In this document: positions 3,301 to 32,252 of the stretch, one piece after another
How positions within the stretch are numbered: position 1 is the first letter of the stretch
How the letters are laid out: the number at the start of each line of letters is the position of its first letter
Source: Zootoca vivipara
Lineage: Eukaryota
NCBI RefSeq assembly: GCF_963506605.1
Contig: NC_083288.1
Span: 29,016,001 to 29,080,000, forward strand
Length of the DNA: 64,000 nt
Reading direction: 5' to 3'
Position numbers and translations under genes: made by a program
The notes under the pieces: generated by a model
What the model was told of the DNA's origin: nothing
The model's input: only the letters and a program-made list of their open reading frames with translations
Databases searched by the model: none

Positions 3301-3958
3301 AAGGCTTAGGCATTGGCAAAGGACTATATCGGACTCCTGCCCCCTTGCAGGAAGTTAGTAAGGGTAAACCACTCAAAGAGGAAGCCACATTGGGGGAACC
3401 CGCCTGTAGGTCTCCTCAGTGTTCACAGAGGCCTGGCATGGCCCTAGTCCCGCAAGCGGACTTCAGACAAGGATCCAGGCCCCAGATTCCTTTAACGGAA
3501 TACCCTTGGTCAATGGAGGGGCAGGCGATGGCCGACTTCCCCTCCCCCACAAATCAATGAGCCAATGCGTAACCGCCAAACTTTACAAAGTTGTGACGAT
3601 TGCTAAGAGGTAGCCAAAAACCAACTGGCCGGTGCCAATTTGCCAGATGGAAAAATTCCTACCCAGCCCCTGTTCCAAAACAGGTGACCAACCAAAGTCC
3701 AGAGCAAGGTCGGAGGACATCTAAAATAAAGGGCGGGTGGGCGGGTGTTTGGCAGCGGGAAGCAGGTGCCTGACACGTATCACGGTGCCACTTTTATATC
3801 CCCCCATGATCACCCCACGCAAAAGTGATTGGCCAAGAAGCTGGGGTGATCGTGGTGCCACCCTGGCATGATGGCATTTCTCCGCCCACACCGGGAGGAG
3901 GAACTGGCCTGGGGGCCTGCCTGCAACCAAGACCATCCTTAAAGATGATCCCACTTAT
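3301..3958 (-). mobile_element. LTR-like non-coding repeat, copy D (3'-truncated)
   Basis: Reverse-complement homology to 11348-12560; TATA (cttttata, ~3791); conserved core at 3600-3665. Confidence 0.7.
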
Positions 3959-4278
3959 CTGAAACACATCCTCTTTTATCTCTTTTAAATGTTTCAACAA
4001 TTTTTTGTATGAAAATATTTTACATTCATTAATTGAACCTAAGAACCAAACTCCATAAGCCATCATTATTTATTTATTTATTTCTACTTAAAATCACTTG
4101 GTGGTAAAGAAGACCTCAAAAAGAGTCAAGAGAAGAGAAAATAGAAAAATCAAGGGGGGGGGGAATCACAACCATACGTTAAAACATAAATACTGCAACA
4201 ACTTAAAATTACCTCAGCTTTATAACCGTCTAAGTGGGTTAACCTACACAAAAAAAGTTTTAAGCAGCAATTAAAAAG

Positions 4279-4643
4279 AGGGGCACGGGTGGTAGTGTGG
4301 GTTAAACCACAGTGCCTAGGGCTTGCCAATCAAAAGGTCGGCGGTTCGAATCCCTACGACGGGGTGAGCTCCGATTGCTCGGTCCCTGCTCCTGCCCACC
4401 TAGCAGTTCAAAAGCACATCAAGTGCAAGCAGATAAATAGGTACCGCTCCGGCGGGAAGGTAAACAGCGTTTCTGTACACTGCTCTGGTTCACCAGAAGC
4501 GGCATAGTCATGCTGGCCACATGACTCAAAAGCTGTCTATGGACAAACGCCGGCTCCCTTGGCCTATAGAGCGAGATGAGCACAGCAACCCCAGAGTCAT
4601 CCACAACTGGACCTAATGGTGAGGAGTACCTTTACCTTTACCT
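4279..4643 (+). mobile_element. Sauria SINE (Squam1)
   Basis: GGTTCGAATCC B-box, (ACCTTT)n tail, TSD TTAAAAAG. Confidence 0.88.
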
Positions 4644-4953
4644 TTAAAAAGTCTACAGTAAAGCCAACTGCTTGATCTTAACAGGCAGGGAGTTTCAAAG
4701 TGTATGCACTGCCAAATTAAACAATCAAGTTCTTCTTACAAGTGCATAACAGAATTTTTTTTACACCAGTGGTAGTGCCAATTCCACTGGGCATAGCGGA
4801 CACATAGGCACATGTGGGTAGAAGTTGTTCTTGTAGTTCTAAGGTTTTGTTTATTGTGCTGCTGTACATTTTAAAATGTTAAGTGAAATAATATAGAATA
4901 TAAGCATTATAGCATTCCTGTTTGTTACCTTTTTTGCATGCTCCTCCCTTTAG

Positions 4954-28800: not shown

Positions 28801-30169
28801 AAGGTGCTTTAACTCAATTTGAAGGCAGTTCACATTCACACTATACATTTAACGCACTCTCCTGCCACTTTAACAGTGATGGCTTCCCCCAAATAATAAT
28901 TGGAGCTGTAGTTTGTTAAAGGTGCCGAGAGTTGCTGCGGGACCCCTCACAGAGCTACAGTTCCCAGCACCCTTAACAAATTACAATTCCCAATGTATTC
29001 TAGAAGTCATATCTGGCAATGGTTTGCAAATGCTATAAATGTATTGTGTGGATGTGACCATAAATTTGGTTGAAACAGACCAATGATTTTATTTTTATTT
29101 TTAAAAAATCAATGTTGTGTTATAAGGATATGCAGAGATATTACAGAAACTGGCAACCTGATTATGCCTGTGTTATTGTTTCCAAATCCAGTTTCATTAG
29201 AACTTGATAGCTTCAGCTTCTTTTTCTTCCTCCTCCTCTACTAGCTGTCTGCATTTGAATAGGTCAGTGACACCAGTGAGGTCATCATTCTTAGTTCATG
29301 TAGGTATCACATACCTTTAAGTGAAACTGGATTATTAATACAGGTTCAACCCTATATCACCAAGAGGTCAACTGGGAAATTCCTATTTCTCATGGTATTT
29401 GACTGTATTCCAGATTAGCAATGGAGTATTTTGTGCTTTAGCTCTCAATCTTGAAAACCATAAAGAATAGCTGAAATGTTTTTATTATTAATTGAAGATA
29501 TATAAATTGAAAGTCAGATGTCACTCTCCAGATCACATTTCAACTAGAATAAAACCCAAAGTGTATTTTGACAGTCCTGTACTATGTATGGCATCCAATG
29601 CTGTCTTTCCAGCTCCAGAAATTAGTGTTTGCAATGGGAATTCAGGTTTGTCTTCCCCCCTCCTCCAGCTTCTCATGCACATTCCAAAATCTGATCTTGA
29701 AGGTCACCCAACTTCCCAGAGCACATTTTTGGCTGTATGGGGGCTGCAGTGGGGAGGAAAGAAATTTTAATCTCAGACCACGGAATGGACCTTCAGCACA
29801 CAATCATAATTACAAGCCACTTGTAAATACAAGTAAAATGTGAAAAATGAGTAACAGGTGCGTTCCTGTATTAAAGAACAATAGCAAAGGCTGAATAAAT
29901 CTCTGCACACATTTTAAAGGGTAATTGAAATTGTTAATAATCACATGAGTAACAATCTTGTGACTATTTTATTAGCTGCTGATCTACTTCTCAACATGAC
30001 TGATTTCAGAATTTCCAGATTGTTTTTTTCAGATTATAATTAATAGTATAAGTGGATTTATTGATATGGCTGATGTCACTTTGCATTAATCAGTTTCATT
30101 GACTTAAAAGAAGAAGAATTATGCTCTGTTTTTTATTAACAGTGAAAGAAGCTATTAACTTACAGAAGA

Positions 30170-31123
30170 ATGTGGAACCAAACCTCACATGTACAATTCA
30201 TAATTATGGGTTTTCCTGAACTACCACAGCACCAGTTATATTTATTTGCATTGTTCAGCACCCTCTACCTTCTAACTCTTTTGGAAAACGTCCTCCTCAT
30301 TGTGACCATTTCATTGAACAACCACCTTCATACTCCCATGTACTTCTTCCTAGGAAATCTCTCTCTTTTAGAAATATTCTATGTCTCAGTAACAATGCCC
30401 AAATTGTTATCAAATCTGTTGTTGGGTGAGAAGACAATCACTTTGGAGGGTTGCATCACTCAGCTGTATTTTTTCTTATCTTTGGCTTCTTCTGAATGCT
30501 TTCTCTTGGCAACTATGGCCTATGACAGGTATTTGGCCATTTGCTACCCATTACATTATGCAACACTCATGAATTACAGAGCATCCACTGTCTTGAGTCT
30601 GGTTTCCTGGCTAGGCGGTTTCCTGGCTTCCTTTCCCTCAGTGTTGATGATCTCCAACTTGCAGTTTTGCAGGAAAAATACAATCAGGCACTTTTTCTGT
30701 GACCTCTCGCCTTTGCTGAGGTTGTCATGCACCGACACTTCATCCATTGAGATGCTGGATTTTGTGGCAGCTTTAGCAGTCCTCATGACTTCACTGGCAG
30801 TCACTGGAACATCTTACGTATGCATCTTTTGCACAGTTGCAAAAATCCCCTCTGTCAAAGGGAAGCGGAAAGCTTTTTCCACCTGTGTCTCACACCTGGC
30901 AGTTGTTTCTATGTTCTATGCCACCACCATATTCATGTATGCACGACCCAAGGCCATTGGAACCTTTGATCTCAACAAGCTGGTGTCCATCCTCTACACA
31001 GTCGTGGCTCCATTTCTCAATCCAATCATCTACAGCCTTAGAAACAGGGAAGTGAGGAAGACCTTAAAAATAGCTTTACATAACTCAGCCACGTTATCAA
31101 AATGTTTTCAAACAGAAAACTAA
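30170..31123 (+). CDS. Olfactory receptor, family 6, OR6B/OR6A(I7)-like (317 aa)
   Basis: MWNQTS; LSLLEIFYVSVTMPKLL, MAYDRYLAICYPLHY, HFFCDLSPLLRLSCTD, KAFSTCVSHL, IFMYARPKA...NKLVSILY. Confidence 0.94.
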   Translation: MWNQTSHVQFIIMGFPELPQHQLYLFALFSTLYLLTLLENVLLIVTISLNNHLHTPMYFFLGNLSLLEIFYVSVTMPKLLSNLLLGEKTITLEGCITQLYFFLSLASSECFLLATMAYDRYLAICYPLHYATLMNYRASTVLSLVSWLGGFLASFPSVLMISNLQFCRKNTIRHFFCDLSPLLRLSCTDTSSIEMLDFVAALAVLMTSLAVTGTSYVCIFCTVAKIPSVKGKRKAFSTCVSHLAVVSMFYATTIFMYARPKAIGTFDLNKLVSILYTVVAPFLNPIIYSLRNREVRKTLKIALHNSATLSKCFQTEN

Positions 31124-31469
31124 AGCCATCACAAAACTGAAAATTACCAAAATTAGTTCAGATAACTTCTCTATTCACCATCAAGCATCACGTGATAACT
31201 TGTGCAATGATAAAATACATGATTTCAGGGTGGGATTCAGAAAGCTACATTTCAGCAGGTTTACCATCATACACTAGATCAGTTTATACTATCTGTTTTT
31301 ACAGATACTTCTTCCCATTTGTTGATTCCAAAATAAAGACATACCAAGCTGTCTAAAAGTTTCTGATTGCCAGGTGTTTTTTCTAAATAAAACGTAGAAC
31401 TGCACAGTGAGATGTGATCTGAATTCACATGGATAATATACATTGTTGCAATCCTCCTGAAAATCACAT

Positions 31470-32252
31470 GTCTCCTGGTGTGGATAATGCGGGTTCACCA
31501 TCATGATGAGCACGATTTGCGGTGGGGGCTTAGCAAACCACTCCTGAGTTCCAAAGGTGGGGGCATGAGTGGTCACTGTTGGATAGGTCCCTGGCTGTTG
31601 TTGGGCAAATTTGTATGTTGCAGCCAGCCCCTTGGGTATAAAAGTCAAAGAAAAAGGTTTCTCTTTCTCTTTGGCTGCGTTTTCAGATCCCCACCCCCCC
31701 TCCGCTGTTTTTAGGCCTCTGTGTTGACATTACTGTGCCTCTCATGGGGTTGCCTGTAGGAATTTTTCCATTTGGCTGGTTGGCTGGTGCCATCTGGTTT
31801 TTGCCTACTGCATAGCAAATATTCACAACCTGTAAGGTTGGCGGTTAGGCATTGGTTATTGGTTGTATATTGGGTCTTGTTGACTGTGTTGGCCCCTTAA
31901 GTTAATGCCAGTGTGTTGGGGAAATTCTGAATGCAGGGGCTCTATGCAGTGTCCATAACCCCCGGTCGGGGGCCAGGACTGCGCATTGAGCCCCTGGGAG
32001 CCTGAGGGGAGAGGGGAGGGCCAATGCACTCGACTCCCTGTCTCTCCCTGTAGGATTTCCCCTTGTTGACAAGGCAAGTTTATTTCTGTCCTTAGGTGAC
32101 AGTTGGAGAACCAATGCCTATGCAACCACTCACTTATTTTATATTTGTATTTCAATAAAAGTTGTGGCCAAATTCATGCCAAAAACCATTAAACAAAAAT
32201 TCTGTCTATGGTGCGAGTTATTTTAGGGGTGGTTTTGGGGACCTCCATGCAA
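31470..32252 (+). mobile_element. LTR-like non-coding repeat, copy E (divergent subfamily)
   Basis: GGGTATAAAA ~31637, core 31756-31855, AATAAAAGTTGTGGCC ~32154, ends CCATGCAA. Confidence 0.68.

Follow-up and report, generated by a model that had tools for sequence, protein, structure and literature searches.

The 64,000-nt window of the Zootoca vivipara genome analyzed here (GCF_963506605.1, NC_083288.1:29,016,001-29,080,000, forward strand) contains copies of a repeat that share a core in which two stems flank an internal loop rich in U, and this raises the question of what kind of element the copies represent and what the core may do for the RNA that carries it. All five cores, A to E, were found where a preliminary description had placed them, on the same strands. 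Copy A (5876-6648, + strand) is a solo A-U-B unit of Ngaro type whose ends are common to 30 genome copies; by analogy with elements L091-L104, its parts were delimited as A (~5876-6080), U (~6081-6250) and B (~6251-6648), all on the + strand. Its core (6165-6220, +) comprises the P1 helix, an A-A-U4-C / U3-U-G internal loop and inner helices, and AATAAAGTTGTGGC (6551-6564, +) holds the poly(A) signal together with the P3 partner described below, constituting a candidate poly(A) site. Copy A is intronic, lying within a vomeronasal type-2-like receptor gene.

Copy B (11350-12561, +; core 11650-11704, signal 12490) is a solo unit with a degenerate 5' U tract, in which other repeats are inserted at ~11889-12338 and whose 3' end is cut by copy C, a further solo unit (12562-13335, - strand; core 13046-12991, signal 12658). 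Copy D (3303-3958, -; core 3663-3609) is a 3'-truncated solo unit, 84% like copy B and devoid of a remaining poly(A) signal, and copy E (31450-32252, +; core 31756-31808, signal 32154) is a solo unit with an uncertain 5' end. A sixth, degraded copy of the module, absent from the earlier list of five, was detected by a covariance model at 58293-58414 on the + strand (31 bits, E 4e-5). Regarding the proposal that the core lies between a TATA box and an AATAAA signal, a clear TATAAA was observed in copies B, D and E only, while A and C have TATA-like words located within the spacer, and copy D ends before any AATAAA. In uninterrupted copies, AATAAA is found 342-421 nt downstream of the core.

The repeats had been called LTR-like, a designation that does not hold: what they represent is the solo form of the split direct repeats of Ngaro elements. 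None of the 30 A-family loci inspected visually showed TG..CA ends or the 4-6 bp target-site duplication of LTR elements, and an LTR reading was discarded; A-family copies have AA at both ends. Full elements show the layout A1-ORFs-B1-A2-U-B2, and in the six read in detail A1 and A2 were 98-100% identical and B1 and B2 99-100% identical wherever both copies lay in the examined DNA. Reverse transcriptase (RT) and tyrosine recombinase (YR) ORFs are encoded on one strand (RVT_1, E 5e-11; Phage_integrase, E 2e-7), the RNase H match was weak and no methyltransferase domain match was obtained in ORF2. An SGNH hydrolase ORF follows YR; its Lipase_GDSL_2 match in L095 (E 7e-7) was just under the cut-off, and no such match was obtained in L091, which is 37% alike to L095. 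The B sequence of the A/C type comes after the YR and SGNH ORFs in L102, and the E-family loci L070 and L082 have SGNH upstream and the same AA ends. Judged by these sequence features, the window repeats are what remains, as solo A-U-B units, of Ngaro tyrosine-recombinase retrotransposons; these solo units most likely arose by A1-A2 recombination and are now decaying. Of 20 long loci, 17 had one core per unit and the remaining three showed no A2-B2 block. The core was located in the spacer U, not at A1 or B1, so that only RNA ending at B2 would carry it.

With regard to the fold itself, each of the five excised cores was predicted to form the stem, internal loop and stem as described. Their folding z-scores were only -1.2 to -1.8, so that a single copy is weak evidence, and in contexts of 330-750 nt the probability of P1 was at least 0.74 in five of 11 cases and at most 0.1 in five of 11. 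Genome-wide, a loose pattern yielded 1900 matches vs. 11 with a reversed control, and a tight pattern 311 vs. 0. Across 21 aligned copies, 92.7% of the cells in the two outer helices were paired, with double changes at five pairs, and the covariation score of this alignment was reached by none of 500 shuffles. A tree-aware test, a parsimony count on a rough, independent tree built from B, was performed on 35 families after removal of three of 38 clusters as mis-parsed. Compensatory events amounted to 6.3 in register vs. 0.17 per off-register pair, ranking first of 24 registers. P1 was paired at 24/24 free positions in the six multi-copy families, and one position appeared as U-A, C-G and A-U. 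The claim of outer-helix covariation was thereby borne out, except that the outer helix of copy D has a G-G mismatch, and the covariation on the tree supports the wider claim that an RNA structure whose internal loop is U-rich is under selection, in an ENE-compatible position. Searches against Rfam gave no gathering matches within the window and, on four loci, two weak unrelated matches far under their cut-offs.

The core does not stand alone. Around core A, a three-way junction was predicted (6118-6236, +), formed by a closing helix (6122-6129/6222-6229), a side hairpin and the P1 arm, and the same fold was predicted in A, L091, L095, L097 and L104; its closing helix was 89% paired, with a double change at two pairs. 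Further, GTCACAAC (6233-6240, +) is the predicted P3 partner of GTTGTGGC, located after AATAAA. Because P3 is invariant, its pairing receives no support from covariation. It was predicted to form in the B2 context in 5/5 young elements, B1 being without a P3 partner, and its probability fell to 0.01 for L095 when other boundaries were used. In two intact families whose YR proteins are 50% alike, the longest exact shared words were both P3 strands (17 and 15 nt), and both loop strands were shared as well. A further predicted helix, P4, would pair its 5' arm (6256-6268, +) with its 3' arm (6514-6526, +), looping out B. P4 pairing is kept between families despite differing sequence, and for 16 of the 19 copies having the signal it outperformed 196 or more of the 200 shuffles. 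Together, P3 and P4 are predicted to fold away ~280 nt of B and to place the B2 AAUAAA beside the loop.

The internal loop had been described as AAUUUU(U) facing UUUU(C)G, which does not apply to copies A and C, where the 3' strand has only three U (GGG-UUU-YG). At least five U on both strands were found in 6/35 families, at least four in 22/35, three in nine and fewer in four, a count to be read with the fact that many single-copy families were recovered by patterns requiring U runs. Runs of 4+3 U are seen in the A family, commonest in the window, and runs of 3+3 in the intact L095 family; according to excerpts of PMC7583470, the PAN ENE has five U-A.U triples. The lengths of the two runs range from 2 to 6 and covary (rho 0.55, p 0.0007, uncorrected for kinship), as would fit a zipper accommodating a third strand. 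In 35/35 kept families, P1 is closed by two G-C pairs, a regularity partly fixed by the search pattern, and a conserved A-G plus a variable A/C/U-Y pair lie between the U tracts and P1.

Expression was assessed in three raw RNA runs with the same species label, whose reads were aligned to related copies. Summed over the three runs, depth in the U bin was 13.4 on one strand, taken as sense from the inferred library strandedness, vs. 0.14 on the other, and four reads spanned the U-B junction. As most reads were 90-95% alike to the copies, they derive from relatives; neither poly(A) sites nor starts were seen among the reads of the three runs.

In line with an earlier suggestion that the module is shared beyond the lizard family, a related module was present in another vertebrate repeat. 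A covariance model built on lizard copies only scored 37-49 bits on this unrelated repeat, compared to at most 18 for chance loci, and a second tandem copy there carries a simple U7 / U5-6 loop closed by G-C. No Ngaro protein similarity was detectable within the examined DNA of the repeat, no usable Atlas match was obtained, and a search of its DNA against the Z. vivipara genome, run without a positive control, returned no match. The recurrence of the module suggests an anti-decay device shared by vertebrate retroelements. As to the suggested link to CR1, nearby CR1 pieces at the five vertebrate loci resembled separate insertions, and no module between an ORF2 stop and a CR1 tail was seen in the lizard's own genome, where GGAAGG-type patterns gave 3 + 1 matches, none placed in a CR1 tail. 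These matches comprised L111, of Ngaro type, L157, old and Ngaro-like, L112, partial at 30.5 bits, and L113, chance-like. In metagenomes, 14/19 pattern matches were chance-like, six of those being one bacterial locus, and all four matches in viral contigs were at chance level.

Taken together, we give roughly an even chance to the following reading: the U-rich loop in the core of the solo Ngaro ends engages the poly(A) tail of the same RNA through ENE-like U-A.U triples and stabilizes only B2-ending RNA. RNA ending at B1 would lack the module, which would be carried by the replication-competent read-through RNA and by any short RNA from an A2 promoter. P3/P4 docking is predicted to bring the B2 AAUAAA next to the loop, the poly(A) tail would then enter the loop, the P1 G-C pairs would take A-minor contacts and deadenylation would be slowed. 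That the module is, moreover, an old and portable poly(A) clamp of vertebrates, common by descent to Ngaro and unrelated repeats and protecting, within Ngaro, only B2-ending RNA, is an extension that we propose tentatively. If true, it would explain how the replication-competent transcript comes to be favored in an element whose two poly(A) signals are identical, and each of the approximately two thousand solo units would be a potential gene for a short, stabilized, PAN-like noncoding RNA.

Other explanations start from the same observations. The three-way junction may be a protein signal, for Gag packaging or for RT loading or priming, that marks full-length RNA, its loop being a run of A-G, Y-Y and U-U mismatches that binds no tail. 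Such a signal, which we regard as somewhat unlikely, would account for a module found only in RNA that continues past B1, close to the 3' end from which reverse transcription has to begin, and for a near-symmetric loop in which A and G are invariant and two successful families have only three U on each strand; according to excerpts of PMC7192593, the DIRS-type primer is unknown. U runs that vary and covary in length fit a fixed protein site less well, however, and recurrence in a vertebrate repeat without detectable Ngaro protein similarity in the examined DNA points to a host-facing function. In a further, improbable reading, the module would be a binding site for a host factor of export or 3' processing, in the manner of a CTE, or would determine, with P3 and P4, which of the B1 and B2 signals is used, no triplex being formed. 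Recurrence in an unrelated repeat would suit a host factor. Those identical signals do need unequal use, and P3, possible at B2 only, covers the AAUAAA end. Partial hiding of the B2 signal is nevertheless the opposite of what B2 termination needs, predicted AAUAAA accessibility showed no consistent difference between B1 and B2, and the U-only loop would be left unexplained.

That the structure works not in RNA but in minus-strand single-stranded cDNA, during end reconstruction, seems very unlikely to us. DIRS-1 replication passes through single-stranded cDNA (excerpts of PMC7192593). Folding z-scores gave the sense strand no advantage, the minus strand folding equally or better in 2/4 cases (better for A and L104), and the C-A found at one P1 position in 6/35 families would be a T-G wobble on the opposite strand. 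G-U/U-G exceeded A-C/C-A on the sense strand, by only 20 vs. 9; the module has the same orientation as the poly(A) signal and is predicted to dock there, and the vertebrate repeat sharing it shows no YR similarity, all of which argue against a role in cDNA. Scarcely any weight is given to a cluster of DNA transcription-factor sites with incidental pairing. The apical loop contains CTGATTGG, which we take to be a reverse CCAAT box, and RATTGG recurs there, both in numerous families and in the vertebrate repeat. It is missing, however, from the intact L091 and L097 families, double changes preserve pairing in P1 as well as in the closing helix and P4, and the core lies downstream of the CCAAT and TATA of the A repeat.

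Documented ENEs occur in RNAs of viruses and of the MALAT1 type, in plant and fungal elements and in a few fish retroviral elements. Among the titles and abstract openings surveyed, no ENE-like or other conserved fold was reported in Ngaro/DIRS or CR1; the survey tables of Tycowski 2012/2016 and Torabi 2021 may list vertebrate cases. On how DIRS-order elements handle RNA ends and prime reverse transcription, a module that is conserved, covaries and is restricted to the read-through transcript offers, together with intact young families, a direct experimental handle in the form of a 90-120-nt RNA.

Compared to known systems, and taking the ENE definition and the Evade precedent from excerpts of PMC7583470 and PMC12501189, the lizard core resembles the KSHV PAN ENE in its internal loop, rich in U and set between two stems, with G-C pairs on either side. 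It resembles transposon ENEs (Arabidopsis Evade/Copia93, and single and double ENEs of plants and fungi) in lying in retroelement RNA upstream of a poly(A) signal. In contrast with both, it has mostly 3-5 U per strand and lies in a three-way junction predicted to dock to the signal by long-range helices; unlike PAN, an A-G plus a variable pair separates its loop from the lower stem. Its host element, a vertebrate YR retrotransposon, also differs from those of known ENEs, and its ENE function is putative. In MALAT1 and MEN-beta, the blunt-ended triple helix likewise combines a U-rich loop with G-C-rich stems in a vertebrate RNA; however, neither a tRNA-like element nor a conserved genomic A-rich tract was seen beside the lizard core, which is followed by an AAUAAA signal.

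The elements themselves correspond to Ngaro of the Xenopus DIRS-53_XT type in their split direct repeats, ORF1, RT, YR, downstream SGNH ORF and absence of a methyltransferase match, and their solo end units recall the solo AB repeats of Cafeteria Ngaro (excerpts of PMC9210276 and PMC8547959). In those excerpts, published Ngaro schemes depict a contiguous B1-A2-B2 and refer to no RNA fold of this kind, and 'hairpin' and 'secondary structure' have no occurrences in that of PMC9210276. In contrast with the described Ngaro, the lizard elements have a unique A2-B2 spacer of 157-347 nt with a conserved RNA fold.

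The five window repeats (copies A-E) contained the proposed core of ~55 nt at 6165-6220 (A, +), 11650-11704 (B, +), 13046-12991 (C, -), 3663-3609 (D, -) and 31756-31808 (E, +). Each excised core folded into a stem, an internal loop and a second stem; the z-scores were modest (-1.2 to -1.8), and copy D carried a G-G mismatch. A sixth, degraded core copy was located at 58293-58414, and the motif had no Rfam match. The preliminary description had also placed the core between a TATA box and a poly(A) signal, which held only in part, as a clear TATAAA was present in B, D and E only and D was without a poly(A) signal. 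Genome-wide, a loose pattern comprising the core and the word GTCACAAC behind it gave 1900 matches vs. 11 for the reversed control, and a tighter core pattern gave 311 vs. 0.

A class C GPCR resembling a vomeronasal type-2 receptor was recognized by eye from open exons on the + strand at 5073-5815, 6751-6978 and 10299-11200. Copy A lies in an intron of this vomeronasal type-2-like gene, in sense orientation and with an AATAAA that could truncate the receptor transcript. A 350-bp SINE-like repeat that resembles the Sauria SINE occurs six times (4279-4648, 7186-7544, 9330-9676, 21652-21995, 49951-50310 and 60843-61197), its copies being 82-98% alike. Two identical 379-bp direct repeats (41896-42274 and 46480-46858), approximately 4.6 kb apart, may mark the two ends of a young element. 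A stretch of 132 N (20582-20713) falls outside copies A-E and the sixth copy.

When copy A was employed as a genome query, 41 matches were obtained (best 40 of 4592 candidates scored), 86-91% alike with self excluded. The 30 copy A-type loci examined had sharp ends with AA at either side and neither TG..CA nor a target-site duplication, so that the initial view of an LTR-like repeat was not borne out. A search for tyrosine recombinase (YR) returned 62 matches, 3' of which the same AATAAAGTTGTGG signal appeared, followed further downstream by the core. Twenty 9.9-kb stretches showed the order A1 - ORF1 - RT - YR - SGNH - B1 - A2 - U - B2, where A and B are split direct repeats, near-identical between their two copies (A1=A2, B1=B2), and U is a unique spacer. 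This type of layout defines Ngaro (PMC9210276, PMC4157794), and solo AB units are on record for Ngaro (PMC8547959). Given this architecture, together with a B sequence of A/C type after YR and SGNH at one locus (L102) and SGNH upstream of E-family loci, the sequence evidence indicates that the window copies are solo A-U-B units of Ngaro retrotransposons. At 12550-12575, copy C is inserted tail-to-tail in the 3' end of copy B, i.e., a Ngaro end within a Ngaro end.

In six elements read, U measured 157-347 nt. A covariance model built from 21 lizard copies matched once per A-U-B unit in 17 of 20 long loci and never at A1 or B1; the other three loci had no A2-B2 block. At L031, L044, L052/L109 and L055, the element stops directly past B1 without A2-U-B2, and these are likely products of B1-B2 recombination in which the module was lost. 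At L095:7254-9803, the B-A-U unit forms a tandem array at the 3' end, and the sequence covered there contained two modules. An RNA ending at the B1 signal would be without the module, while a read-through RNA would carry it upstream of the B2 signal at the distance of 342-421 nt measured in uninterrupted copies. From the architecture, we infer that read-through RNA is required for rebuilding both element ends. In one element, the SGNH ORF lacks an early ATG and has a splice-acceptor-like site in front of it (L091:6555-6568), and several acceptor-like sites occur in the spacer of another (L095:8125-8200), with a donor-like site 3' of A1; spliced subgenomic RNAs from such elements would be possible.

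Three raw RNA-seq runs (~6% of each sampled, 63-86 reads aligned per run) and one contig set were aligned to L091:651-7961. Depth in the U bin was 3.2, 10.2 and 0 on one strand vs. 0, 0 and 0.14 on the other, which fits sense transcription of U if the libraries are of the usual stranded kind, strandedness being inferred. Four reads spanned the U-to-B junction, and no transcript start or poly(A) end was found among the aligned reads. As most reads were 90-95% alike to L091, they derive from related copies.

Local folding predicted an identical three-way junction around the core in copy A, L091, L095, L097 and L104. Two long-range helices were also predicted. In P3, GTCACAAC behind the module is complementary to GTTGTGGC following AATAAA; it was predicted in the B2 context of 5/5 young elements, although varying with the boundaries chosen, and B1 had no such partner. 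P4, which closes B, outperformed 196 or more of its 200 shuffles in 16 of the 19 signal-bearing copies, both arms being family-specific in sequence. P3 is invariant and therefore cannot covary. If both helices formed, the tail would begin within a few tens of nt of the loop.

The core is a genuine RNA structure of Ngaro retrotransposons that has been under selection. Across 21 aligned copies, 92.7% of cells in the outer helix (P1) and closing helix were paired, with five pairs double-changed, a covariation score reached by none of 500 shuffles; slid registers reduced pairing to 26-63%. We parsed 105 cores (98 distinct), which formed 38 clusters by B region and, once three mis-parses were dropped, 35 families. 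Every one of the 24 free P1 positions was paired in the six multi-copy families, whereas no pair formed at the eighth position. The claimed covariation of the outer helix withstood a phylogenetic check: on a rough tree built from B, counted without R-scape, compensatory events numbered 6.3 in register, which ranked first of 24 registers, vs. 0.17 per off-register pair. In two intact families whose YR is 50% alike, the two P3 strands were the longest common words of A2-U-B2, and both loop strands were retained. On the other hand, six families had C-A at one P1 position, G-U exceeded A-C by only 20 to 9, and P1 was of high probability in just 5 of 11 long contexts folded globally. Folding z-scores showed no preference for sense over minus strand.

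Beyond Ngaro, a metagenome pattern scan yielded 19 loci, five of which (L117, L118, L123, L130, L132) represent a single GC-rich vertebrate repeat that shares the three-way layout and is probably from a bird, judging by nearby CR1 pieces. Its module copies stand in tandem, ~175 nt apart, the second having a G-C-closed loop with U7 / U5-6. The lizard-only model scored 37-49 bits over its full length on these loci, and at most 18 bits on 13 other loci that matched the pattern, a set from which five duplicates of a bacterial locus had been removed; the likeness thus exceeds the search pattern. The CR1 home suggested earlier for the module was not confirmed by pattern matches in the lizard's own genome.

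Regarding function, the loop sets A-N-U(n) opposite U(m)-Y-G. By its layout, the Ngaro core may work like an ENE, a poly(A)-clamping U-rich element. We consider such a clamp, acting on RNA ending at B2, the most likely role, with about even confidence; that the module is instead a packaging or RT signal is the main rival and appears rather unlikely. Our literature search, which covered the ENE work of Tycowski and Torabi via reviews, found no report of this fold. Majority U-run lengths were 2-6 and correlated between strands (rho 0.55), with at least five U on both strands in 6 of 35 families and at least four in 22. PAN forms five triples and three A-minor contacts (PMC7583470), whereas the abundant A family has 4+3 U and L095, an intact family, has 3+3. 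The core thus matches an ENE well in its layout and placement, but in some successful families the match is marginal as to length.
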